From: a bacterium
GTDB taxonomy: Bacteria; Patescibacteriota; JABMPQ01; JBDRIV01
Direction of reading: 5' to 3'
DNA: 64,000 nucleotides
Assembly: GCA_043815505.1 (NCBI GenBank)
Contig: JBDRIV010000002.1
Span: 11,484-75,483 of the forward strand
Part shown: one piece after another, positions 3,034 to 58,242 of the stretch
How positions within the stretch are numbered: position 1 is the first letter of the stretch
How the letters are laid out: each line of letters starts with the position of its first letter
Notes under the pieces: model-generated
The model's database searches: none
What the model was told of the DNA's origin: nothing
Seen by the model: the letters and a program-made list of their open reading frames with translations, nothing else
Program-made: the position numbers and the translations under genes

Positions 3034-4324
3034 ACCATAGGACAGTTATAGTTACTGCCGGCGTTCATCCGCGCTTCAGAAGAGAGCTTGCACCCTCTTC
3101 ATTAACGTTCGGACACTGGCCAGGCATCAGCCCCTATACATCCTCTTACGAGTTAGCAGGGACCTATGTTTTTGGTAAACAGTCGCTTGAAGTCAGTCGC
3201 TGCGCCCTGAAGCAAAGTAGTAAACTACCCTTTTCCAGGGAGGCCTTATTCCAAAGTTACGGCCGCTGTTTTGCCGAGTTCCTTAACGAAGGTTCTTTCG
3301 ATCACCTTGGTATGCTAGTACCCACCTACCTGTGTTGGTTTACGGTACGGATCCGTTTTAACTAATCTTAGAGGTTTTTCTCGTCAGCTTGGATCAGTAG
3401 AATTGTCTAACTTTAGGAAAGACTTCTCACGTTCTTCGGATAAACGACTGCCCGGATTTACCAAAGCAATCTGCCTAATGAATATGAACGCCTATTACCA
3501 AAAGACGCTCTACCTACCATGCCGCGTTACCCCATCGAATTAAAACGAAGCGCCAGAATATTAACTGGCTTCCCATCATCTACCCCAGCACTACACTGGG
3601 CTCGACTTAGGACCGGCTAACCCTAGGATGATCAACATTGCCTAGGAAACCTGAGGTTTACGGTGTTCTGGGTTCTCACCAGAATTTTTGTTACTCATGC
3701 CAACATTCTCTCTTCTCTTCGCTCCATCTAATGGCTTCCGCCTAGACTTCACTGCGAAGAGAATGCTCCTCTACCACGTATATCAAAAGATATACATCCG
3801 TGTCTTCGGTAATATGCTTGAGCCCCGTTATATTTTCGGCGCGGAAACTCTCGACTAGTGAGCTGTTACGCACTCTTTAAATGAATGGCTGCTTCTAAGC
3901 CAACATCCTAGTTGTTTGAGAACTTCTACAACCTTTCCCACTGAGCATATATTTTGGGACCTTAGACGACGGTCTGGGCTGTTTCCCTTTCGACTATGAA
4001 GCTTAGCCCTCACAGTCTGACTCCCATGCAATAACTTTTCTGTATTCGGAGTTTGTTTGAAGGCAGTAGGATAAATCCATCTGTCTTCAACCAGTGCTCT
4101 ACCCCAGAAAAGATAAACATGAGGCTAGCCCTAAAGCTATTTCGAGGAGAACCAGCTATTTCCAGGTTCGGTTGGTTTTTCGCCCCTAACCACAGCTCAT
4201 CCGCTCGCGTTACACGACGAGTCGGTGCGGACCTCCACTTCGTATTACCGAAGCTTCATCCTGACCATGGCTAGCTCACCTGGTTTCGGGTCTGTTCCCT
4301 GAGACTTAGGGGGGTTAACCCCTG

Positions 4325-4425
4325 CCCAGCCCCAGTTTTATTGAACTCGGAATTTTGGAATTCGATAATGCTCAAATGATTCATTGAACATTAAAGATAT
4401 TGAGTTCAGCAAAACTGGGGCTAGG
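4325..4425. repeat. Family-A palindromic element (long form, ~100 bp) inserted in 23S domain II just 5' of GACCCGAAACC
   Basis: cccagccccagtttt ... gaactcgg ... ttgagttcagc ... aaaactggggctagg, with nested inverted repeats. Confidence 0.75.
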
Positions 4426-4513: not shown

Positions 4514-4622
4514 CACCCCGCTCCAGTTTTATAGAACTCGGAATTTAAAAATTCGATTATGCTAATAAGCAATTTATTAAGCTTAAAGCATTTTGAGTTC
4601 TGCAAAACAGGGGCGGGGCTCC
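4514..4622. repeat. Family-A palindromic element (long form), second copy inside 23S
   Basis: caccccgctccagtttt ... gaactcgg ... ttgagttctgc ... aaaacaggggcggggct; internal core similar to the 4325-4425 copy. Confidence 0.75.
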
Positions 4623-4713: not shown

Positions 4714-5171
4714 ATCACAAAGAGTATTTAGTCTTGGGAGAGTAGTTCTCCCAGCTTCCTACGGAATTCCACTCACTCCGTAGTACTTAAGAATAAAACC
4801 GTAAAGTTATAACAGATTTTCGAATACAGGACTATTACCTTCTTTGGTGGACCTTTCCAGGTCACTTCTTCTAATCAATATTATTTCTTTACCTCTTGTT
4901 TGTAGCCAAGAACATTTTATCTTGCAACACCCTATTTACAACGCCTACAAGCTTGAACATAAATAAGGTTTGGACTGATCCCGTTTCGCTCGCCGCTACT
5001 AAGGGAATAATTAGCTTGTAGCAAATGGCATAGGGCAAATAGTAAACTATAAGCCATTAGCCATAAGCTATAAGCAGTTTGATTTCTTTTCCTCCGGTTA
5101 CTAAGATGTTTCAGTTCACCGGGTTGTCTTCCAACATCCTATGAATTCAGATGCGGATCCCAGCTCCACTT

Positions 5172-5435
5172 TTAGCAATCAATTTTGCTGTGTTCTAATC
5201 TCTTTTTTAATTCATGAATAGAACTCCCATGACTTTTAAGTCTTTTTTCTCTGACAATCGCATCTTTTTTGTTACGATATGCTTCAGCATAAACCAAAAT
5301 CCATTTTTCACTCTTTCTCTTTGTAGAATGAACTTGATTTTTATTATGTTCAGAGAATCTTTTCTTAAGATTTTTTGTAATTCCAACATAAAATCTTTTG
5401 TCCCCAGAATGTTGAAGTAAATAAACAATAAACAT
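5172..5435 (-). CDS. GIY-YIG nuclease-domain protein (UPF0213/YhbQ-like, 87 aa) embedded in a variable helix of the 23S 5' domain
   Basis: Motifs YLLQ...KRFYVGITKNLKKRFSEHN match the GIY-YIG signature. The ORF sits between the 23S blocks CCGAATGGGCAAACCCC and GGTGAACTGAAACATCT, where E. coli has only ~60 nt. Confidence 0.6.
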   Translation of the reverse strand: MFIVYLLQHSGDKRFYVGITKNLKKRFSEHNKNQVHSTKRKSEKWILVYAEAYRNKKDAIVREKRLKSHGSSIHELKKRLEHSKIDC

Positions 5436-6410
5436 TCTTTGGTATTAATGACTAAAAGTGGGGCTGGGGGGTTTGCCCATTCGGAGATCCTCGGATCAAG
5501 GGTTGTTTGACACCTCCCCGAGGCTTATCGCAGACTACCACGTCCTTCATCGGCTCTTTGTGTCTAGGCATTCACCATACACTCTTACCTCTTAGGTTGA
5601 TAAGATTAACTAGCTATATGTATTGATATTCAATTGTGTAAAGTCCTATCATTTGTTTTCACATTGTTGAAGTTTTTAAAACTGCAATTATCTGAAAGCA
5701 AATGGGCAACTAAAAAACCGCTCGTCGCGGCTCAATTTACACAAGGAATTATGCGTTCTAAAAGGCCGCCTAAATATGAGTAGTTAATGATCTTTTTTTC
5801 ATACGATTTTCCTTATATATTTAGATGTTTATCTGGTACTACGACTCTTTGTAGTACTGAGTTTATCGTATGAGTAGTGTACTTATAATTTAAAATGTTG
5901 TCAAGGAACAACTTTTACGCGGTGTGGACTTCCTGTGTAAAAGTGGAACATTTAGGCTTAGAATAAGAAAAAGATTAGTTTGACAATATGTTTATTTAAG
6001 CATATTCTTAATAGATTTGTGGTATTGTAATATTAGGAGGATTTGTACATTAACATTTTTGTTTGTTCTAAAAATGGGCGTAACTAATTGTGGAGGAATA
6101 AGGAAACGATAAAAAAGAAATGATATTTTCAAAAAAACAGAAAATACTACTTAGGAGAATGTTAATGAAAAAATCTACAGAATCAAATTCATTGAAGCCA
6201 GATATTATTTCAGGAGCAATTTGTAAACAACTTCCCCCAATCTGTTATGAAAGCGAAACCAAAAAGAGGGAAAGAGTAACCCAGTCTTTTAATATTCAAA
6301 GATGGTATAACGATCTTTTTGGTTTTCCCAAAGATGGTTCAATTTCAATTAGGCGGTAGAGATGTATTGTGGCTACAGTATCATGAAATTAAAACCAAAG
6401 GAGGTGAGTT

Positions 6411-8145: not shown

Positions 8146-8443
8146 TCTGTAATTTTGGTGGACCGTAGGAGAGTCGAATCCGCCGGTCGGCAGACAGACC
8201 TTCTTTCAAAACAAATTTAAAATCTCTCTGGACCGCAGGGGGATCATCTACCCGCGACTACGTTTTGGGCGTGGCCAGCTTGCCCGCGGATGCGGGACGC
8301 AGCCAGGAGGAACTCACCTTTTAAACATTTTTCATGGACTCGAGGAGAATCTCACCTAGAGAGTGACCAGCCTTTGGGCGGGAACTCCTTTTTCTTTCTT
8401 TAAAATCTTATGGACCTGGCCGGATTCGAACCGGCTTTTATAA

Positions 8444-8776: not shown

Positions 8777-8929
8777 ATGTTGAATCTAAGTACTAAATCT
8801 TTTATTGACTAAGAGTCAGAATCGCTTACCCAGTCGTGCTGTGCGCGACTGTGGAAATCGCCTTATAAACATTTTAAACTCCTGGACTCAGAGCGAGAAT
8901 AAGAACTCCTTTTTAAAACATTTTGCCTC

Positions 8930-9003
8930 TGGACCCGGCCGGATTCGAACCGGCGGCCCCCTGCTTGCAAAGCAGGTGCTCTAGCCAACTGAGCTACGGG
9001 CCC
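8930..9003 (-). tRNA. tRNA-Ala(TGC)
   Basis: Reverse complement GGGCCCGTAGCTCAGTTGG...CTTTGCAAG...GGTTCGAATCC...CGGGTCCA has a G3:U70 pair and anticodon TGC. Confidence 0.9.
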
Positions 9004-9206
9004 AAAGGCAAAATGTTTTAAACCCCCTGGTCTTGCAAACAGTTTAATTTTCTATTGAAAATTAAACTGGGGGGTGCGTCTGCGGTTGAGCTACGAGCCC
9101 ATGGAAAAATGATTATAACTCCTGCAGTGTGACTTTGCTAAGGGCTGTTGGCAAATTGCAAATGGAAAACGTTAATTGCTATTAGCCACTCGCTATAAGC
9201 CAAATG

Positions 9207-9464: not shown

Positions 9465-9589
9465 GTCGTCGTAACAACTCTTCAGCTTTCGTCCCGCTTA
9501 GCGGGACTTCACCCTGCGAGTTGTTTCTCCTCTCAATTTAAACGCGTGCTCACTCCGCGTTGCGGGGTTGCACTCCTCGTTTAAATTGC
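9465..9589 (-). ncRNA. Family-D structured element, copy A (~125 nt)
   Basis: Minus-strand stem CAATTTAAACG/CGTTTAAATTG, then GAGAGGAGAAACAA and a 3' block CTGAAGAGTTGTTACGACG. The stem covaries in copies B and C. Confidence 0.45.
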
Positions 9590-9693
9590 AACTAATAATA
9601 CTTTATAAATTCCCCAGTGGGTGACCTGAAGATTTTCAGCCAGAGGCTGATCCGCCTTTGGCGGAGAACCTCGTCACTTAATACATCTCTCAG

Positions 9694-9767
9694 TGGGCGA
9701 TCGAGGATTTGAACCTCGGACCTCGTCATTATCAGTGACGCGCTCTAACCAACTGAGCTAATCGCCC
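9694..9767 (-). tRNA. tRNA-Ile(GAT)
   Basis: Reverse complement GGGCGATTAGCTCAGTTGGTTAGAGCGCGTCACTGATAATGACGAGGTCCGAGGTTCAAATCCTCGATCGCCCA. Confidence 0.9.
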
Positions 9768-9798
9768 ACTGAGAGATTTATCTTTTTATTATACATTA

Positions 9799-10026
9799 GG
9801 ATGATCACCCGTAGGGTGAGAATCTCGGACCTCGTCTCGTCCAAACAATACTTCAGTCTTCGCAATCCAACAAGTTGAATTGCTTCGACTTACGTATTGT
9901 TTCTCCTCTCCGATTAAAAACGTGCTCGTTCACTACGTTCACTGCGCACCATTTTTAATCGGTAACTGTTAAGTGACGCGCCTGCCTGCCGGCAGGCAGG
10001 CTCTAACCAACTGAGCAAACGTTGCC
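9799..10026 (-). pseudogene. tRNA-Ile-like paralog interrupted by a 19-nt GC hairpin in the D region and by family-D element copy B (9838-9962) in the anticodon loop
   Basis: 5' part GGCAACGTTTGCTCAGTTGGTTAGAGC[CTGCCTGCCGGCAGGCAGG]CGCGTCACTTAACAG... then the 125-nt element ... GACGAGGTCCGAG; T-arm region degenerate. Confidence 0.45.
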
Positions 10027-10146: not shown

Positions 10147-10205
10147 AACCCCGCCCCACCCCACTCCAGTTCTAATTAAAAACTGGGGCTGGGTGGAGCG
10201 GGGTT
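10147..10205. repeat. Family-A palindrome (short form) between the 16S 3' end and the tRNA-Ile paralog
   Basis: aaccccgccccaccccactccagttctaattaaaaactggggctgggtggagcggggtt. Confidence 0.7.
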
Positions 10206-10445
10206 ATCTTTTGACATTTAAATAGTGATAGGAGCAGATTGACATGTCATGAATGAATTCATGAAAGTCGACCTTCGGGTATGCTTGCTTATTAAACAAG
10301 CGGATATTCCCTAGAAAGGAGGTGATCCATCCACAGCTTCCGCTACGGATGCCTTGTTACGACTTTGCCCCTCTCGCTGGGCCCACCTTCGGTCCTAGAA
10401 CTAGGAACTTCGGGTGTTCCCAACTCGCTTGACATGACGGGCGGT

Positions 10446-11371
10446 ATCGAGATCCAAATTGGTCTCACACCACTGGGCAAACGGTTTTACCGTACCCTAG
10501 CGGTTCCACGAATATTATTCAGCTTGCGAATTTTATTTCGCAAAGAAACAATTTTTTTAAATCCAACATCGGTTAGATGCTGTTTGGATTTAATTAACAT
10601 AACTGCTTCACAAAATAATTCATAAACCAAACGCTTTTTAGCTCTCAACTTGTAACGGTTGAAGAAGGGAATTATTTTTTCACTCAAATCATTTATATTG
10701 CTCACTTTATATTTGACATGCGGATGCCATTTATAACGAGCATAATTTAAGCGATAGATATTTCCGCAACCAAAAGCATTTTTAATTTGGTTTAGGATTT
10801 CTTCATCATCGGCGCGGAGTTCTATTTCAAACTCTGCCCTAACTTCTTGTCGGCGTTTCAAGGTTTGATGTTTGCTGATACTAATACAGAAACATCCTTC
10901 CCCGTCAACGAAACCGACAATATATTCGGGATGAAGATTATTATTTTCGTGGTTCGGTCCTTTTCCCGCTCCAGTTTGTTTTAAACTGGGGCTGGATACT
11001 ACGACCTCTGCTGACTTCTTGTATTGCATCGTCATAATATTGCTATTATGTCTTAATTCTCGTGGGGTTTGCACCCCGAGGTTATTATACCTCAAAACAA
11101 GAATACAATACAAGATCTCCCTGGGTCACCTTATAAACCGTTCTTTCTCATCTCGGCTTTCCTGCACTTTAGTTTCCAAATTTACAGAAGACTTCCCTAC
11201 GTACACGAAAGGTCGTCGTTGAAACTAAAGCCTAAACGAAAGCTCAAGCTAAGAAATGCTACTTTTACCCTTGTTCCCAAACCTCACGATTTGGGACTGT
11301 AATTTCGCTTCCCAGTTTCTGCAAACTGGGGTGTGATTTTAACACACTGGTTTATAAAATTGCCAGGCGCA
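10446..11371 (-). mobile_element. 16S intron (group-I-like) inserted within CUUGUACAC / ACCGCCCGUCA (E. coli ~1395-1400)
   Basis: Exon matches stop at plus 11372 (gtgtacaag) and resume at plus 10445 (gacatgacgggcggt). Contains a LAGLIDADG ORF. The exact splice junction is ambiguous by +/-3 nt. Confidence 0.6.
10487..11113 (-). CDS. LAGLIDADG homing endonuclease, encoded in the 16S intron
   Basis: Motif IVGFVDGEGCFCISI in a 208-aa protein. Family-A palindrome cccgctccagtttgttttaaactggggctgg lies in-frame at 10958-10994 and encodes KQTGAGKG. Confidence 0.8.
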   Translation of the reverse strand: MYCILVLRYNNLGVQTPRELRHNSNIMTMQYKKSAEVVVSSPSLKQTGAGKGPNHENNNLHPEYIVGFVDGEGCFCISISKHQTLKRRQEVRAEFEIELRADDEEILNQIKNAFGCGNIYRLNYARYKWHPHVKYKVSNINDLSEKIIPFFNRYKLRAKKRLVYELFCEAVMLIKSKQHLTDVGFKKIVSLRNKIRKLNNIRGTARVR

Positions 11372-12284: not shown

Positions 12285-12346
12285 CCAGCTTCAGTTTGGA
12301 ATCAAATCAAAAAAGAATTCAGTTTTGATTACAAACTGAGGCTGGG
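12285..12346. repeat. Family-A-like palindrome inserted in the 16S V3 region
   Basis: cccagcttcagtttgg...ttacaaactgaggctggg, between the 16S blocks ...ACGGTACCATTGG and the 515 region. Confidence 0.65.
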
Positions 12347-23295: not shown

Positions 23296-23397
23296 TCCCC
23301 GCTTCAGTTTTTTAGAACTCGACACAATATAGTTATGTAATTCTAGAAGTAATTTTAAACTTAAAGAATTTGAGTTCAACAAAACTGAGGCGGGGTT
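23296..23397. repeat. Family-A palindromic element (long form) downstream of rpsP; likely acts as a terminator
   Basis: atccccgcttcagttttt ... gaactcgac ... ttgagttcaac ... aaaactgaggcggggttttt. Confidence 0.75.
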
Positions 23398-23638: not shown

Positions 23639-23974
23639 ATGGCAGAATCATTTGACGATCAACAATTTGTTGAATTCGTTGTAAAGTCTATTGTCGATCA
23701 CCCCGACAAAGTCAAAACCGAACGTGTTATTGACGAAATGGGCGTTCTAATTACCCTTACTCTTGATCCAGAAGACATGGGTCAGGTAATCGGACGTCAA
23801 GGTGCAACTGCAAAATCAATTAGAACTCTATTGAAAGTAGTTGGCGCAAAAAATAACGCTCGTGTTAACCTGAAGATCAACGAACCTGAAGGTAGTACTC
23901 GTGGCAGAGACAGACGAGAAAGTCCTGCTCCCACCGAAGAAGACACTGACGTTGTAGACGATCTTAAACTATAA
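23639..23974 (+). CDS. KH-domain RNA-binding protein (KhpA/YlqC-like) with a C-terminal extension
   Basis: GQVIGRQGATAKSIR matches the KH GXXG motif; position between rpsP and trmD. Confidence 0.75.
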   Translation: MAESFDDQQFVEFVVKSIVDHPDKVKTERVIDEMGVLITLTLDPEDMGQVIGRQGATAKSIRTLLKVVGAKNNARVNLKINEPEGSTRGRDRRESPAPTEEDTDVVDDLKL

Positions 23975-27564: not shown

Positions 27565-27843
27565 ATGACCAAACAAGAAGTAATTGAAAACCTTGCTTCT
27601 AAAGCAGGCGTAACTAAGAAAGTTGCCGATGATGTTTTAGATGCCTTTGTTAATGTGGTAACAGAAACTCTTCAGAAAGATGAAAAAGTATCAGTAACCG
27701 GTTTTGGTACTTATAGCGTTTCTCATAGAGCCGCCCGTACCGGTGTAAATCCCCAAAATCCAACACAGAAAATCCAAATTCCAGCTATGAAAGTTCCTAA
27801 ATTTACAGCTGGCAAAACTTTGAAAGATTCTATTAAAAACTAA
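27565..27843 (+). CDS. hup: DNA-binding protein HU
   Basis: HU signature with the GFGTF-like arm GFGTYSVSHRAARTGVNPQNP. Confidence 0.9.
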   Translation: MTKQEVIENLASKAGVTKKVADDVLDAFVNVVTETLQKDEKVSVTGFGTYSVSHRAARTGVNPQNPTQKIQIPAMKVPKFTAGKTLKDSIKN

Positions 27844-28018: not shown

Positions 28019-28107
28019 GATTGACAAAATATTTTTTGCTAGTAAAATACGAAAGCTGGGTCGAAATTCTCACAACCCTCCTTGTGAATTTGTTTCGCCC
28101 AGCTTTT

Positions 28108-28404
28108 TTACTTACTTAAAAATGGATTGGCGGAAGAAATGTTTTCAAAACTGGTTTCAGTTTTTGATTCCGCTATTTTTGATTGACTATTTTTTACATC
28201 TTCAGAAATTACTATAGAAGTTTGTCCCATGTAAGTAGTTGCTCCATTTGTAGCATTGCCAGTTAACCAATATTCAAAAGCACCAATAATTAAAATGATC
28301 AGCAAAGCTGCTAAAAAAGCAAAGAAAGCAGCTTGTCGCCAAATTGTTTGAGATAAGTTACCAATAAATTTTGGCATTTTAAATTCCATATTTTTGTTAG
28401 CCAT
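28108..28404 (-). CDS. Membrane-anchored hypothetical protein; last gene of the pil operon
   Basis: One TM segment; ORF overlaps pilO. Confidence 0.4.
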   Translation of the reverse strand: MANKNMEFKMPKFIGNLSQTIWRQAAFFAFLAALLIILIIGAFEYWLTGNATNGATTYMGQTSIVISEDVKNSQSKIAESKTETSFENISSANPFLSK

Positions 28405-33710: not shown

Positions 33711-33814
33711 AACCCCGCTCCAGTTTTATTTAACTCAGAATATTGTTCATTAATGTTGGGAAATTTGTTATAAAAAACATTAATGATTTGAGTTCAATAG
33801 AACTGGAGCGGGGC
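33711..33814. repeat. Family-A palindromic element (long form) upstream of pilB
   Basis: aaccccgctccagtttt ... aactcagaa ... ttgagttcaat ... aactggagcggggcg. Confidence 0.75.
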
Positions 33815-37345: not shown

Positions 37346-39090
37346 TAAATTATCTTTTTTACTTCTTCAAAAATGTCTTCGGGGTAAAATGGTCGGCCGG
37401 TGTAACACAACATCATTTCATCTACATCGTAACCAGTATTTTCTTTTATAATACTTCCAAACTGAGCCGTTTTATTACCTTCAATAAGAAATGTTTTCTT
37501 GGACGTTTCCATAATTCTTTTTGTTTCTGTAACTGGAAACGGAGCAATATAAATATAATGATAGAAATTTACTTTCATACCTTCATCCTCAAAAAGTTTT
37601 AAAGCTTCAAGTATAGGTAGTTTTGTTGAGCCCCAAGAAATTATCGTTACATCAGCTTCTTCTAGGCCAAAACGAATTGGTTTTAACAAATCAGCATTTT
37701 CTTTAATTAGAGTTTCAATTTTTTTATAGCGTTTATCATTTTGCTTTATTGTCATGTCGGGATCTTCGGTGGTAAAACCAGTTTCGTCATGTTCATAAGA
37801 TGAAGCAATGTGTTCTCCACCTTTTTGTCCAGGGACGGCTCGGGGTGAAATTCCGTCTGGAGTTAATTCATAACGTAAATAATTTTTCGGAGCTTTGTTG
37901 CCAGCAATTAATTTCCCTCTATCCAAATGAATCCAAGACTCATCAAAAGTATCTACCGTTTGATGAGAAGCGCCCACATACTTGTCAGAAAGAATTAGAA
38001 CTGGTAACTGATAAATTTCTGCTAAATTTAATGCTGTAACTGTGTGTTCAAAACACTCGTTAGCATCTCCTGGTGTTATTAGAATTCTAGGAAAATCACC
38101 GTGAGAAGCGTGTAAAACAAAACGTAAATCGGCTTGGGCAGTCCAAGTTGGGAGTCCGGTTGATGGACCAGCACGCTGAACTTCAACGGCCACTAGTGGC
38201 GCCTCATTAATTCCGGCCATACCAAAAGCTTCTGTCATTAAAGCAAAACCACCGCCAGAAGTTCCGGTCATGGTGCGAACTCCTGCCACATTTCCACCAA
38301 TCGCCATGTTCATGGCAGCCAGTTCATCTTCTGTATGTTTAACTACAATATTGTAGAGTTCTTCGTTGGCAGCCAATCCATGCAAGATTCCTGAAGCGGG
38401 AGTCATAGGGTAAGCACAATACATTTGTAGTCCCCCGCGAATGGCCCCAGCCACAATCGCGTCATTACCAGTTAAGTACATTCTTTTAGTGAAATCTTCT
38501 TGAACTTCTGCTTTCCATTCAAAATCGTCAGCATATTTTTCTTTGGCAAATTCATAACCTTGTTTGGCTACTTCCTGATTTTGTTTCACAACCTTATCAC
38601 CCTTTTTTATAAAGGCAAATTCAATTATATCCATCAATTTTTCCATAGAGTAATCAAGTAGACCCACAGAAGCACCCAGAGCAACGGTATTTCTCATGAC
38701 TGGATTACCACCAACATCTTTGGTAATTTCCATTAACGGAACATGCAAATACTTTACATCCTTTCTTTCTATTTGCAGATCTTTCATGTCATCTGCTTGC
38801 TCATCATAAATAATAGCACCACCAGCAGACATTTCACTTAAATGCTGATCAATGGTTTCGCGATGCAGAGCAACTAACAAATTTATTTCATGAATTTGTG
38901 ATGTTACAGGCTCATTGGAACAATGTACTTGATATGAATTGTGACCACCGCGAATTAGAGATGGATATTCTGGATAACCAAATACAAAAAGACCGCCACG
39001 GACTAGCAACTTACCCATCATAACTCCGGTTGTCATTGTTCCCGAGCCGGCTTCGCCACCGACTTTCCATGTAAATTTGTTTTTGGTCAT
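37345..39090 (-). CDS. korA: 2-oxoacid:ferredoxin oxidoreductase, alpha subunit (fused gamma-alpha type)
   Basis: PFOR domain III plus domain I motifs; translationally coupled to korB. Confidence 0.85.
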   Translation of the reverse strand: MTKNKFTWKVGGEAGSGTMTTGVMMGKLLVRGGLFVFGYPEYPSLIRGGHNSYQVHCSNEPVTSQIHEINLLVALHRETIDQHLSEMSAGGAIIYDEQADDMKDLQIERKDVKYLHVPLMEITKDVGGNPVMRNTVALGASVGLLDYSMEKLMDIIEFAFIKKGDKVVKQNQEVAKQGYEFAKEKYADDFEWKAEVQEDFTKRMYLTGNDAIVAGAIRGGLQMYCAYPMTPASGILHGLAANEELYNIVVKHTEDELAAMNMAIGGNVAGVRTMTGTSGGGFALMTEAFGMAGINEAPLVAVEVQRAGPSTGLPTWTAQADLRFVLHASHGDFPRILITPGDANECFEHTVTALNLAEIYQLPVLILSDKYVGASHQTVDTFDESWIHLDRGKLIAGNKAPKNYLRYELTPDGISPRAVPGQKGGEHIASSYEHDETGFTTEDPDMTIKQNDKRYKKIETLIKENADLLKPIRFGLEEADVTIISWGSTKLPILEALKLFEDEGMKVNFYHYIYIAPFPVTETKRIMETSKKTFLIEGNKTAQFGSIIKENTGYDVDEMMLCYTGRPFYPEDIFEEVKKII

Positions 39091-39259
39091 CTCCTTGTAT
39101 TTTCAATTAGTATAATTGTAACAAATTTCTTGGTATCGGGAAAGTGTAATAAATTTGACGAAAAAATACCGCCGAGTATAATGAAAACAAAAGTGCCCAC
39201 ACAGAAACAAAAAAATTGGCACTTTTTCAATACCTTGGTCCAAATTTGTCCGAAAGGAG

Positions 39260-39631
39260 GTGAGAACGTTGAATTGTTGTACTAGTGACAGAAAAACCGA
39301 AAATCGCTGGATTGATTGGAGTCAGTTGATTCCACGTGTCACTCATCTGCCAATAGGTCGTTATGACCCTTGCCCTCGGTGCAATCGAGGCACGGAAAAG
39401 AAGGTGGTTCGGGGCAAACTGAGGTCCGTGCCTACGCACGGTGATTTCATGGTTTGTCCCTTGTGCCAGCAGGTTTTCTGCAGTGCTTGTTTCTTGAGCG
39501 ATCCAACACGTCTCACAAACATATTCTTGCTCAAAACAAGTCGTCTGAAATCGCTTGGCGCTTCCGTCAATACTGCAGTTCCTTGTCCGGACTGCAAAGA
39601 GATTGTCGATCTCAACGGCCCAAAAAATTAG
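39260..39631 (+). CDS. GC-rich small zinc-ribbon protein (123 aa, GTG start)
   Basis: SD aaggagg 6 nt upstream; CPRC ... CPLC and CPDC pairs; local GC is about 50% against a background near 35%; followed by a terminator. Confidence 0.45.
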   Translation: MRTLNCCTSDRKTENRWIDWSQLIPRVTHLPIGRYDPCPRCNRGTEKKVVRGKLRSVPTHGDFMVCPLCQQVFCSACFLSDPTRLTNIFLLKTSRLKSLGASVNTAVPCPDCKEIVDLNGPKN

Positions 39632-39671
39632 AGGGGTTTGGTAAATGAAAACCAAAATAAACGGACCTTAT

Positions 39672-39706
39672 GTCGCGTTGCTAGATTCTACCGCAACGCG
39701 ACTTTT
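39672..39706 (+). terminator. Rho-independent terminator
   Basis: gtcgcgttgc ... gcaacgcgac followed by tttttt. Confidence 0.6.
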
Positions 39707-39938
39707 TTATTAGTTTACTTTTTAGAAAAGTAACAAAAGCTTTCTTTTTCCACCATTTGCTTGCCCAAATGGTGGAGCCAAAGGGCACAACCGGGGATTC
39801 GGCTTGAAACTTCCACTTTCTTTTTCCACTTTTTGGCAGCAAAAACTGGAGGAAAAACTGCCTCGCGGTGGTTGATTTTTGAAGATCACTATCAGCTCGA
39901 CCCTGCCCGCCTGATGGCGGGCTCATTAATTTCCTAAA

Positions 39939-39974
39939 CTCCCCAGCTCCAGTTTTGCGAAAACTGGGGCTGAG
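39939..39974. repeat. Family-A palindrome (short form)
   Basis: ccccagctccagttttgcgaaaactggggctgag. Confidence 0.7.
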
Positions 39975-40196
39975 TCAAACAGCAGGAAATTTTGCCTTGG
40001 TTCGATTTCACTCACCACAAGGTCGGCAAACATTCGGTCTTCGCTTGAGTCGAGCATATAAAAATCCCCACATACTCGGGGATTATTTTACTTAATATTT
40101 TTAATACATTCAAATTAGAATTTCAAGCTGACAGGAGTTTATTATGGTATATTTTCAAATAAATAACCCCGATTTTATAAAAATATTTTAAACAAG

Positions 40197-50640: not shown

Positions 50641-50749
50641 AAACCCCGCCCCAGTTTTGCAAAACTCAAAAAATCAAAATTTAATTATGCTAAAAAGCAA
50701 TTTCTAAGCTTAAAGCATCTGAGTTCAATAAAGCTGGAGCGGGGTTTTT
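50641..50749. repeat. Family-A palindromic element (long form) downstream of the ferredoxin gene
   Basis: aaaccccgccccagtttt ... aactcaaaa ... tgagttcaat ... aagctggagcggggttttt. Confidence 0.75.
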
Positions 50750-54955: not shown

Positions 54956-57016
54956 ATGCCTTCACTTCTAGAATCGAAAATCACCTCTCTCCGAAAAATA
55001 GACAAGCGCCGACAAAGCGCTCTTTTGAAGTTGGGCATAGAAACTGTTGCAGATCTATTAAATCACTTCCCTGTTCGCTATAACGATTTCTCTCAAACTA
55101 CACCAATCAAAGAACTTAAAGTTGATGAATTGGCAACCATAAAAGGAGAAATATTAACAATTTCTTCTTCTCGTTCTCCGCGCAAAAGATTGCTTATTAC
55201 CGAAGCTTTAATTAAAGATGATTCTGGAACCATTAAAGCAGTTTGGTTTAATCAGCGTTTTATTGAGACTTCACTTAAAAAAGGTTATAAAGTAAATTTA
55301 GCTGGAAAAGTGGAACGTTCTTATTTAGGATTGCAAATAAGTAGTCCTGAATTTGAACGCGTAAAATCTGACCAAGTTCACACCGGCCGCATTATCCCTG
55401 TTTATTCTTTATCGGGTGCCCTAACTTCCAAATGGTTACGATTTATATTAAAACCACTTCTGCCGAAAGCTTTGTCAGAAATAGAAGATTATTTGCCAGC
55501 AGAAATTAAAAAGAGAAATAGTCTAATTGATTTGGAAGTTGCCTTGCAGCAAATTCATTATCCCGATTCCAATAATTCTCTGAAAGAAGCGCGCGCTCGG
55601 CTAGCTTTTGATGAATTGTTTTTAATTCAGCTTTATAATTTATCAGCTAAAAATAAATGGCAACAACACCAAGCCAATTCATTGAAGTTTGATGATAAAT
55701 TAATGAAAAATTTTGTTTCCTCACTTCCTTTTACACTAACCAATGCTCAAAAGAAAACAGCTTGGGAAATTCTACAGGATTTGGAAAAAAGTGAGCCAAT
55801 GAACAGATTATTGGAAGGAGATGTTGGCAGCGGCAAAACCATTGTGGCCCTAATGGCGGTTTTGCAAACGGTAAAAAATGGTTATCAAGCAGTTCTACTT
55901 GCACCAACAGAAATACTTGCTTGCCAGCATTTTAATTCCGCTCAAGAATTTCTGCCTGATTTAAAAATAGGATTACTAACCCGTTCACAAAAAGAAATTA
56001 ACGATGTCGAAGTTTCTGATCAAGAAATAAAAAAGCAATTAAAAAAAGGCGCTGTAGAATTTCTAATTACCACGCACGCCGTTTTACAAAAAGATATTAA
56101 ATTCAAAGACTTAGCTTTAGCCATAATTGACGAACAACACCGATTTGGTGTGGAACAAAGAGCTTCCCTTAAAGACAAAACGCCAAAGAAAATGCCCCAT
56201 CTACTTTCTATGACAGCTACGCCAATCCCTCGAACGTTGGCCTTAGCGCTTTATTCAGATTTGAATTTATCAATAATTTCAGAAATGCCCAAAGACAGGA
56301 AAAAGATTTTAACTAAGATTGTGCAACCACAAAATCGAGGCAAGGCTTACGATTTTATAGAGCAACAAATTCAAAAAGGACGACAAGTGTTTGTAATTTG
56401 TCCGCTCATTGAAGAATCGGACAAGCTGGGAGTTAAATCGGTAACAGCCGAATATGAAAAATTAAGCAAACAAGTATTTCCGCAATTAAAAATAGATTTC
56501 TTACACGGACGATTAAAGAAAGATGAGAAGCAGCAGAAAATGGAAGAATTTCTGAAAAATAAAATAAATGTTTTGGTTTCAACTTCTGTAATTGAAGTTG
56601 GTGTTGATGTTCCCAATGCTACAGTGATGATGATTGAAGGTGCTGATAGATTTGGTTTAGCGCAACTACATCAATTTAGGGGCCGAGTAGGTAGAAGCGA
56701 GCACCAATCATTTTGTTTTTTATTTACCGATTCTGCATCAGACAAAACTTTAGAGAGATTAAACGCTTTGCAAAAAAGTAATAACGGTTTTGAATTAGCG
56801 GAAATGGATTTAGAATTGCGCGGACCGGGAGAAGTTTTTGGCATCAGACAATCAGGACTTCCCGATTTGAAAACAGCAACGCTATCTGACCATAAATTAA
56901 TTGCTATTACAAAAAAAGAAGCTGAAAAGCTTATTGCCGAAGATGCTAAAATATCTAAATATCCTTTACTTAAAGCCAAAATCAAAGCTTTTACACATAT
57001 TATTCATCCCGAATAA
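54956..57016 (+). CDS. recG: ATP-dependent DNA helicase RecG
   Basis: Wedge/OB N-terminus; helicase motifs DVGSGKT and DEQHRFG. Confidence 0.9.
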   Translation: MPSLLESKITSLRKIDKRRQSALLKLGIETVADLLNHFPVRYNDFSQTTPIKELKVDELATIKGEILTISSSRSPRKRLLITEALIKDDSGTIKAVWFNQRFIETSLKKGYKVNLAGKVERSYLGLQISSPEFERVKSDQVHTGRIIPVYSLSGALTSKWLRFILKPLLPKALSEIEDYLPAEIKKRNSLIDLEVALQQIHYPDSNNSLKEARARLAFDELFLIQLYNLSAKNKWQQHQANSLKFDDKLMKNFVSSLPFTLTNAQKKTAWEILQDLEKSEPMNRLLEGDVGSGKTIVALMAVLQTVKNGYQAVLLAPTEILACQHFNSAQEFLPDLKIGLLTRSQKEINDVEVSDQEIKKQLKKGAVEFLITTHAVLQKDIKFKDLALAIIDEQHRFGVEQRASLKDKTPKKMPHLLSMTATPIPRTLALALYSDLNLSIISEMPKDRKKILTKIVQPQNRGKAYDFIEQQIQKGRQVFVICPLIEESDKLGVKSVTAEYEKLSKQVFPQLKIDFLHGRLKKDEKQQKMEEFLKNKINVLVSTSVIEVGVDVPNATVMMIEGADRFGLAQLHQFRGRVGRSEHQSFCFLFTDSASDKTLERLNALQKSNNGFELAEMDLELRGPGEVFGIRQSGLPDLKTATLSDHKLIAITKKEAEKLIAEDAKISKYPLLKAKIKAFTHIIHPE

Positions 57017-57130
57017 ATTTGACATTTGGACTTGTTTAAGTATAATGGCGGCATACCTTAAACCCACCGTTCCTTCAATAACCGTTCCGTTTTGGCCAAC
57101 GGAACAAAACCTTTAAAAAGGGGGTATTAA

Positions 57131-57538
57131 ATGAATCACATGGGGGTAATGAGTCAAGGAGATGCGATTGAAAGAATCGCAGCTGCGGTGAAAGAAATGA
57201 GAGTTGACGGATCACCGGAGGAAATGGTCCAACAGGCACTGAATGGAAAAGGTCTGGGATGGTTGCAAGGGTCGTTGCGGAAAAAGCTTCCACTTATCAA
57301 GCGAGTCATTGTCATCTGTCGTGAACACGGCGGAATGATTCCGGTCAGTGAGACCACAAGAGCAGCATCTGATCTCATGCGACTTCATGAACTCTGCGAA
57401 AAGCAGCCGAGGCTTTCTGCTCAGGCAGAATTCATTGCCAAGACCATCGGACCGTTTCTCGCAAACAAACCGGTGCCTCATTTCGTGGATCCGGGTACGA
57501 AAAAGATCAGGGTTCGCAAGAAAATGGCCGTGGCTTAA
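57131..57538 (+). CDS. GC-rich hypothetical protein (135 aa)
   Basis: Promoter TTGACA-16-TATAAT at ~57030-57058; 5' UTR hairpin ccgttccgttttggccaacggaac; SD aaaggggg. Local GC is about 52%. The overlapping antisense ORF 57212..57691 is rejected. Confidence 0.4.
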   Translation: MNHMGVMSQGDAIERIAAAVKEMRVDGSPEEMVQQALNGKGLGWLQGSLRKKLPLIKRVIVICREHGGMIPVSETTRAASDLMRLHELCEKQPRLSAQAEFIAKTIGPFLANKPVPHFVDPGTKKIRVRKKMAVA

Positions 57539-57687
57539 AATCCCCAATAACAACAAGAACATTCCCGAACTTTTGCTTTTGGTGGGGGCCAATAGATAAC
57601 AGCAGAACATAATCATGGGTAAAATAGCTGCCTTGTCAGGCAAGTCAAAACCCAACCTATGATTATCTATGCTGTTTTTTCTTTGTT

Positions 57688-58242
57688 TCAAAAAATAGCT
57701 ACAAAGCGCCAGAATTTAGGATTAACTTCCTTGATCCCAATACGCGGTGTTTTTTTAATTTGCTTAGGTTTAAGGTTAATGTTTTCTATCCAAAGTTTGT
57801 TACTTTGTAAAGATAATTTATTTTGCGCTTTTGAAATATGAAAATAATTGCATAGCTTTCCGGGCCCATTAATATAATTTGCAGGATCAAACATTCCAAC
57901 ATTCTTGAGAATGTTGGAATGTTTTTTAAAAGGAATCACTCCCCTAATTAGAACCGCGCCCGCTTTCCCATCAATTTCTGTTACTACATTAAAACAAAAA
58001 TACATACCATAAATAAAATAAACATAAGCCTGGCCTGGTTGACCAAACATTACTGAAGTTCTTTCGGTTTTTCCTCGGAAAGCATGAGAAGAAGGGTCAT
58101 TGGTACTGCCATAGGCTTCTGTTTCAAAAATAATACCACGATATTCTTTACCGCGGTATTTTCTCACTAATGTTTTTCCCAATAATTCACGTGCCACTTT
58201 TAAAGCTGGACGGGCATAGAATTTAGTTGGCAGTTTTGACAT
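57688..58242 (-). CDS. mpg: DNA-3-methyladenine glycosylase (Mpg/AAG family)
   Basis: FYARPALKVARELLGKTLV and ETEAY motifs of the AAG family. Confidence 0.85.
   Translation of the reverse strand: MSKLPTKFYARPALKVARELLGKTLVRKYRGKEYRGIIFETEAYGSTNDPSSHAFRGKTERTSVMFGQPGQAYVYFIYGMYFCFNVVTEIDGKAGAVLIRGVIPFKKHSNILKNVGMFDPANYINGPGKLCNYFHISKAQNKLSLQSNKLWIENINLKPKQIKKTPRIGIKEVNPKFWRFVAIF

Follow-up and report, generated by a model that had tools for sequence, protein, structure and literature searches.

How do two short GC-rich segments come to stand in a stretch of DNA as AT-rich as this one, and what do they encode? We addressed this question for a 64-kb portion of contig JBDRIV010000002.1 (the window, meaning that whole stretch; guanine-plus-cytosine (GC) content 37.2%), in which an initial annotation had marked two islands and had offered horizontal acquisition or regulatory leader units as explanations. 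Its claim that both islands exceed an AT-rich background in GC holds, and the excess resolves to two small coding sequences (CDSs), open reading frame 1 (ORF1) and ORF2. Judging from their sequences, we lean slightly toward the view that both CDSs were imported by horizontal transfer and are expressed from native-type signals.

The anomaly is clearest at third codon positions and in codon choice. GC at third positions (GC3) is 0.484 in ORF1 (39269-39631; overall GC 47.9%) and 0.500 in ORF2 (57131-57538; 49.8%), against a mean of 0.273 (standard deviation 0.044) in the remaining 46 ORFs of the window, which gives z-scores of +4.8 and +5.1. Synonymous-codon log-odds relative to native usage are −0.11 for ORF1 and −0.22 for ORF2, where native genes score 0.183 ± 0.049 (z = −6 and −8). 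The GC-rich stretches match the extents of the CDSs, with flanking leaders and 3' regions at 34–41% GC. Raw GC discriminates less well because native regions reach comparable values: similar totals occur at a resolution of 350–500 nucleotides (nt) in korA (38031-38530), at 40951-41680 and at 44671-45060, and local values of 0.46–0.50 are found in korA, an asparaginyl-tRNA synthetase (AsnRS)-like gene and an FG-GAP gene. The telling signal is therefore GC3 together with codon usage. By the atypical composition used to recognize transferred genes, both ORFs look foreign at all three codon positions. ORF2 has a coding-like profile (GC1 > GC3 > GC2; GC1/GC2/GC3 = 0.59/0.40/0.50), such as position-specific GC relationships would predict for a genome of ~50% GC.

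An unlikely alternative is that both are native, lineage-specific, highly expressed genes whose GC is kept up by a local mutational process or by selection, for example on messenger RNA (mRNA) stability or structure or on amino-acid content. In style as in composition, the promoters, leaders and terminators of both match native ones; the strong Shine-Dalgarno (SD) sequence of ORF1 recurs in full, within the window, only before the HU-like gene at 27565, probably a highly expressed native gene; the ORF1 CDS alone folds somewhat better than its shuffles (z −2.9, compared with −0.4 ± 1.2 for twelve native CDS segments); and orphan status says little in so isolated a lineage. Yet the other native genes that are probably highly expressed stay at low GC3 (0.23 in the HU-like gene, 0.30 in a 111-amino-acid (aa) ORF at 23639), the folding of the ORF2 CDS (z −1.3) is unremarkable, amino-acid usage does not account for a GC3 of 0.5, and no mechanism is known by which only two genes of 400 nt would gain 20 points of GC3. 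Given the CDS-only z-scores of the two ORFs, structure does not explain the GC excess.

A third compositional outlier was seen at 41107-42099 on the minus strand, where a 330-aa class-II aminoacyl-tRNA synthetase catalytic core has a GC3 of 0.42 and a low codon score. Pfam tRNA-synt_2 covers its residues 2-322, and no separate anticodon-binding domain family was matched. It adjoins tRNA-Lys(CUU) and is separated from island 1 by the riboflavin-kinase gene, which is very AT-rich (GC 0.26).

The left part of island 1 is the ORF1 transcription unit, which is laid out as follows.

39155-39182, plus strand: promoter TTGACG-16-TATAAT, 11 of 12 consensus positions

39189-39228, plus strand: leader hairpin, stem AAAAGUGCC/GGCACUUUU with a 20-nt A-rich loop, an A-run before it and a U-run after it

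39254-39263, plus strand: SD sequence AAGGAGGTGA, 10 nt complementary to the 3' end of 16S ribosomal RNA (rRNA), 8 nt before the TTG at 39269

39269-39631, plus strand: ORF1, 120 aa from TTG or 123 aa if read from the GTG at 39260, a predicted orphan protein of zinc-ribbon type that lacks public annotation

39672-39708, plus strand: ORF1 intrinsic terminator, 10-base-pair (bp) GC stem GUCGCGUUGC/GCAACGCGAC, 11-nt loop, six-U tract, −17.4 kcal/mol

40196-40270, minus strand: transfer RNA (tRNA) gene tRNA-Arg(UCG), convergent with ORF1

The initial annotation had read a CPxC zinc-ribbon protein in this island, and its cysteine motifs are present: four CxxC, three of them CPxC, in the order CPRC-x24-CPLC-x4-CSAC-x31-CPDC. 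Shuffling the protein gave at least four CxxC motifs, at least three of them CPxC, with a frequency of 5e-6, and 50,000 shuffles of the DNA never did; no other stop-free stretch of at least 60 aa in the window holds even three CxxC. Because this pattern lies so far beyond chance, we regard ORF1 as a genuine zinc-ribbon-type coding sequence. The motifs pair as knuckles with ribbon-like spacing (CPRC-x24-CPLC and CSAC-x31-CPDC), again beyond chance, and zinc binding is predicted. Of the six reading frames across ORF1, only the sense frame and the antisense frame in codon register are free of stops; the remaining four hold 4-8. ORF2 shows the same pattern, which is typical of real GC-rich genes. 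The public record is thereby corrected, since it misses this zinc-ribbon gene, which bears the strongest expression signals in the window.

That the islands are structured noncoding RNA (ncRNA) genes, their ORFs by-products of low stop-codon density, is quite improbable. GC-rich islands reportedly served Klein, Misulovin and Eddy in 2002 as signatures of ncRNA genes in AT-rich genomes, and both islands share the local GC excess, hairpins, promoters and terminators of such genes. The other GC-rich features of the window are rRNA, tRNA and hairpin elements, long antisense ORFs overlap both ORFs, whole-transcript folding reaches z-scores of −3.5 (island 1) and −3.1 (island 2), and the minus strand of 39890-40062 can form a five-way junction, described below. 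Here, however, the excess lies in frame-consistent ORFs with frame-specific stops and with well-placed SD and start codon in both islands, and the CxxC and CPxC motifs of ORF1 add to the case for coding. CDS-only z-scores are native-like or, at most, borderline, with no exceptional structure, and neither an Rfam family at E ≤ 10 nor, by ARAGORN even at 80% thresholds, a transfer-messenger RNA (tmRNA) was matched. The antisense and other ORFs of the islands had no Pfam support and no counterpart in the protein collection, and the antisense translations do not resemble proteins.

The second island carries the ORF2 unit, which comprises the following features.

57019-57046, plus strand: promoter TTGACA-16-TATAAT, 12 of 12 consensus positions, beginning 3 nt past the recG stop codon

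57084-57105, plus strand: leader hairpin GUUCCGUU/AACGGAAC, arms 57084-57091 and 57098-57105, −10.5 kcal/mol, without a U-tract

57120-57125, plus strand: SD sequence GGGGGT, preceding the ATG at 57131

57131-57538, plus strand: ORF2, a 135-aa orphan protein, predicted helical, GC 0.50

57598-57680, plus strand: ORF2 terminator, a long AT-rich hairpin with a six-U tract, −28.4 kcal/mol, abutting the stop codon of the convergent mpg gene (57688)

Over 129 residues the ORF2 product does not differ from NCBI MFH1508616.1, a hypothetical protein (ABIE68_00390) deposited in a 129-aa version. We rejected an antisense ORF of 159 aa, which overlaps the stop codon of mpg through TTGA, as its translation does not look protein-like.

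The expression signals ascribed to the islands are largely as first described. Both promoters are near consensus, at 11 of 12 and 12 of 12 positions, with transcription predicted to start near 39189 and 57053, an SD sequence precedes each ORF, and past each stop codon a stable hairpin followed by a six-U tract forms an intrinsic terminator (39672-39708 and 57598-57680). Promoters with at least 11 of 12 consensus positions number 11 in the window, standing before the 16S rRNA gene, tRNA-Lys and several operons; they share a AATTTGAC...AGTATAAT flavor, and by this common flavor the island promoters are native in style. The supposed identity of architecture is real only as a layout, which both islands show: the same layout is generic for any monocistronic bacterial gene, and the proteins and leaders are unrelated. 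ORF1 and ORF2 have no similarity to each other or to the rest of the window, in which the islands have no paralogous sequence apart from promoter words and the family-A hairpin, a dispersed repeat taken up below. Strong expression of ORF1 is predicted from its perfect SD sequence, which most native genes do not have.

Among 45 native ORF start regions most had no recognizable SD sequence, although the 3' end of the 16S rRNA is canonical (GATCACCTCCT).

The leaders had been read as possible attenuators or riboswitch-like elements, and the hairpins on which that reading rested do exist, with the one in island 1 slightly shifted (39189-39226, where 39196-39235 had been given). It is very improbable, in our view, that the islands are regulatory leader-ORF units whose hairpins control the ORF downstream by attenuation or as expression platforms of a riboswitch. 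A U-run does follow the island-1 hairpin just downstream of the promoter, and a direct repeat, ACCGTTCC, present twice upstream of the island-2 hairpin could provide alternative pairings. Against this, Rfam scans of 38900-40400 and 56950-57750 returned no riboswitch, leader, small RNA or other relevant family at gathering score or at E ≤ 10, so that no known aptamer or leader family is matched; each leader measures only ~80 nt, too short for most designs that combine an aptamer with a platform; and past the promoter elements the two share neither sequence nor structure. The island-1 hairpin (arms 39189-39197 and 39218-39226; 9 bp, 20-nt loop, −9.5 kcal/mol) has five strong pairs and four A-U pairs and no evident antiterminator or other competing structure, and the island-2 hairpin, which lacks a U-tract, has an alternative pairing of only 5 bp. 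The hairpins are probably ordinary mRNA features (5'-end stabilizer, insulator or weak terminator) and not ligand sensors. The island-1 hairpin begins ~1 nt past the predicted start site, and its flanking A-run and U-run make it weakly terminator-like in both directions; the simplest reading would be that it stabilizes the 5' end or insulates the korA and ORF1 units, which diverge, from each other.

The edges of the GC-rich segments bear on whether the islands could be assembly chimeras, short foreign reads stitched into the contig, as the initial annotation had suggested checking. The source is a metagenome-assembled genome (MAG) and the change in composition is sharp. The GC-rich segments, however, are exact CDSs framed by promoter, SD sequence and terminator in DNA of native composition, they fit precisely between neighboring genes with no repeats at their junctions, and two chimeric inserts of 0.4 kb within one 567-kb contig would be unusual. 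We consider an assembly artifact very improbable.

Searches for relatives of the two proteins covered, overall, 1.8–15 billion proteins plus viral, metagenome and phage DNA. K-mer and HMMER searches of 5.8 billion clusters returned nothing for ORF1 and only a self-match for ORF2. PHROGs, NCBIfam, PADLOC and PDB sequences gave nothing credible for either ORF, nor did tblastn of phage genomes or six-frame pattern scans of viral and metagenome contigs, and tblastn against 42 loci, mostly from Patescibacteria MAGs, found neither. An exhaustive phmmer search of ORF1 against 1.84 billion representatives had one match (P0002, E=1.3e-4), which we rejected as a relative: it falls in the thrice-repeated zinc-finger segment of a 2396-aa protein and shows no family relationship. 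A weak match of ORF2 to the N-terminal domain of a dipeptide epimerase among PDB sequences (E=0.005) was judged to be chance. The check by BLASTP and profile searches that the initial annotation had proposed thus yielded no homologs and, for ORF1 only, a sub-threshold match to IBR.

This match places ORF1 residues 37-77 on the IBR half-RING zinc finger (Pfam PF01485) at E=4.5e-5 and 23.9 bits, short of the gathering threshold of 24.3. ORF1 shares the pattern CP.C...C..C...FC..C, the first six cysteines of the C6HC signature, but the histidine and terminal cysteine are absent after FCSAC, the second site could be completed only by the distant CPDC pair, there is no RBR context, and no RBR protein in the PDB was matched by ORF1. 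In score and in ligand pattern ORF1 falls short of an IBR domain.

The organism itself, probably one of the Patescibacteria, belongs by its sequences to an isolated lineage. Its nearest KorA relative in a protein search of 5.8 billion protein clusters has 52% identity, nothing close to this lineage emerged from a KorA scan that covered 185,579 species genomes, and look-ups of encoding contigs held no record of either the ORF2 protein or KorA. In such a lineage, the orphan status of ORF1 and ORF2 says little.

How, then, should an import of the two CDSs be weighed? Orphan genes normally match the GC of their host and those derived from viruses, including phages, are AT-richer (PMC11293555), and a pangenome study assigned most Escherichia coli ORFans to horizontal import (PMC13012023); from these trends, orphans strongly off the host's composition point to import. 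ORF1 and ORF2 resemble the compositionally atypical ORFans, or 'alien' genes, that parametric methods recover and that figure in the amelioration model of Lawrence and Ochman: they are short, have no homologs, deviate in GC3 and codon usage, and lie in intergenic hot spots, beside a tRNA gene or between convergent genes. They differ in being GC-richer than their host, in having strong native-type promoters and SD sequences that do not look silenced, and in lacking the hallmarks of mobile elements. As two clean orphans that depart from the usual trend in the opposite direction, they could help to trace imports into a reduced and probably host-dependent bacterium.

Several points weigh against this reading. 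The case for transfer is compositional, with no donor or homolog found, and parametric detection is error-prone on 400-nt genes (PMC3089488). The GC1, GC2 and GC3 values of ORF1 are flat, and its product is not in the public protein collection in any start variant tried, meaning that public annotation did not call it. AlphaFold single-sequence models have low confidence (predicted local distance difference test (pLDDT) scores of 35 and 44), too low for fold searches; that of ORF2 is largely helical. No integrase, attachment (att) site, target-site duplication or junction repeat was found at the islands. A fast-evolving native small protein would also look orphan in a lineage this isolated (KorA at 52%), and two independent imports, each behind a consensus promoter of native type, are a coincidence that needs explanation. 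Since no homolog or close relative turned up in any collection searched, the import that the initial annotation had suggested cannot be proven; by the foreign composition and codon choice it is nevertheless the origin with the best support.

On the reading that we favor, each island is an independent one-gene transcription unit for a lineage-restricted orphan protein: that of ORF1 is small, with two predicted Cys4 sites that would bind zinc, and that of ORF2 is likewise small and predicted to be helical. The import would have been fairly recent, drawing on one or more donors of ~50% GC, and the codon usage of the imported CDSs would not yet have drifted to that of the AT-rich host. The two CDSs occupy spacers beside convergent genes, ORF1 facing tRNA-Arg and ORF2 between recG and mpg, and their near-consensus promoters are like those used for rRNA, tRNA and operons. 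The right half of island 1 is a separate matter, a lineage-native cluster of GC-rich palindromes together with the probable terminator of tRNA-Arg.

In treating 39105-40100 as one unit, the initial annotation had merged the ORF1 unit, which ends at its terminator, with an unrelated hairpin cluster. The GC hairpin and the family-A repeat that it had noted there were both found, among these features.

39710-40062, no strand assigned: hairpin-dense noncoding spacer, GC 0.46, with no Pfam-supported ORF and no Rfam match

39751-39776, 39821-39854, 39856-39873, 39905-39922 and 39944-39972, no strand assigned: spacer hairpins, the fourth being the GC hairpin and the last the short form of family A

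40063-40084, minus strand: hairpin and U-run, probably the terminator of tRNA-Arg

The spacer consists of five or six independent palindromes. Two of its hairpins (39751-39776 and 39821-39854) have a common 5' flank, CTTTCTTTTTCCAC, and by eye their arms are similar to those of family A; they look like degenerate family-A-like copies. On the minus strand, in the orientation of tRNA-Arg, 39890-40062 folds into a five-way junction that includes the family-A hairpin and is closed by GCUCGACUC/GGGUCGAGC (−70.9 kcal/mol, z −5.5, minimum-free-energy structure equal to the centroid); the plus strand reaches −60.8 kcal/mol (z −4.0), 10 kcal/mol less. In these folding models the segment may represent a structured RNA, or no more than palindromes stacked together. 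A candidate tmRNA at 39770-40075 on the minus strand, suggested by an eye-caught likeness (GGGG...CUCGAC at one end, ...GCUCCACCA at the other), was rejected: ARAGORN found nothing down to 80% thresholds, no Rfam model matched at E ≤ 10, and CUCCACCA is a palindrome arm. No att-like repeat of the 3' segment of tRNA-Arg occurs in 39050-40195 and no integrase ORF is present, so that island 1 does not have the makings of a tRNA-targeted genomic island.

The family-A repeat has arms CCCGCYCCAGTTTT/AAAACTGGRGCGGG around an interior that is either a 3-9-nt loop or a variable stretch of 69-75 nt, and occurs in 12 paired copies in the window. Family-A hairpins stand at the following positions.

2408-2435, 4327-4423, 4518-4616, 10161-10191, 10966-10994 and 12286-12344: family-A copies, first part

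23299-23393, 33715-33811, 39944-39972, 45046-45138 and 50646-50742: family-A copies, second part

Some copies follow genes as terminator-like hairpins, and the 16S and 23S rRNA genes contain others. In a pattern scan the same arms, with unrelated interiors, recurred in MAGs of several Patescibacteria classes (loci L002-L041), among them Saccharibacteria, Paceibacterota, Kaiserbacteria, Moranbacteria and Falkowbacteria, and at locus L003 a copy lies within an RNase P RNA gene (3264-3778). Because family A is spread across Patescibacteria, the high GC of island 1's right half is a native repeat phenomenon and no part of any acquisition of ORF1. This half resembles clusters of repetitive extragenic palindromic (REP) sequences and bacterial interspersed mosaic elements (BIMEs) in that independent GC-rich palindromes follow one another between the convergent ORF1 and tRNA-Arg genes, one of them a member of a dispersed repeat. 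It differs in that the family-A arms are common to several Patescibacteria classes, are found within the genes for rRNA and RNase P RNA, and flank a GIY-YIG ORF on both sides; classical REPs are not known to do either of the latter.

The bracketed ORF encodes 87 aa (5172-5435, Pfam E=8e-17) within a 298-nt insertion of the 23S rRNA gene (window 5161-5466), between the family-A-like arms CAGCTCCACTTT and AAAGTGGGGCTG. On the strength of this arrangement, short family-A hairpins may be miniature derivatives of a stem-bracketed endonuclease element. A paper on rRNA insertions in the Candidate Phyla Radiation (CPR; PMC11270868) does not mention hairpins, palindromes or inverted repeats, as judged from a word search. 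This analysis has two main by-products, a zinc-ribbon gene missing from the annotation and a family-A hairpin element found across the clade, and the latter is probably more interesting than the islands themselves.

A more far-reaching picture, which we regard as a long shot, would have ORF1 and ORF2 represent a class of GC-rich, strongly expressed small proteins encoded throughout the genome; an episymbiotic Patescibacteria-like lineage would have acquired these from a partner of higher GC and would use them in host interaction, and ORF1 would be a eukaryote-type IBR/RING-like zinc finger. Separately, the minus strand of 39890-40062, co-oriented with tRNA-Arg, would be a new structured RNA into which family A has inserted, as in the rRNA and RNase P RNA of this clade. 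Neither a new regulatory mechanism nor a new class of RNA finds support, and the finding is otherwise an ordinary one.

The rRNA operon of the window is rich in insertions, with a 23S gene that spans 4.8 kb and, in all, four LAGLIDADG ORFs and one GIY-YIG ORF; such insertion-laden rRNA genes are documented in CPR/Patescibacteria (PMC11270868). On the minus strand, in the segment 10317-11400, the 16S gene is split after ...CTTGTACAC by an insertion of ~1 kb near its 3' end, which holds a LAGLIDADG ORF (10487-11113) and an Rfam group-II-D1D4-1 match (10957-11055, 50.9 bits) overlapping a family-A hairpin; the true 3' end, with the anti-SD sequence GATCACCTCCT, lies at 10317-10327. The other LAGLIDADG ORFs are at 175-627, 1587-2090 and 2397-2948.

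The genes for tRNA-Ala, tRNA-Ile and tRNA-Lys (8912-9022, 9681-9781 and 40941-41044) each lie within inverted repeats of 21-26 nt, 92-96% complementary, which lengthen the acceptor stem and look like processing stems. Partial duplicates of tRNA-Ala and tRNA-Ile segments occur in the rRNA spacer (8411-8435, 9813-9836 and 10000-10019), and a conserved 45-nt element with 73-76% identity lies on the 5' side of minus-strand tRNA genes (9507-9551, 9883-9927 and 40319-40363). Finally, a candidate small RNA at 28021-28112 on the plus strand, 200 nt downstream of the HU-like gene and without an Rfam match, has a promoter (TTGACA-16-TAAAAT), a 55-nt hairpin with an anti-SD-like CCCUCC loop, and a six-U tail (−25.8 kcal/mol, z −6.9).

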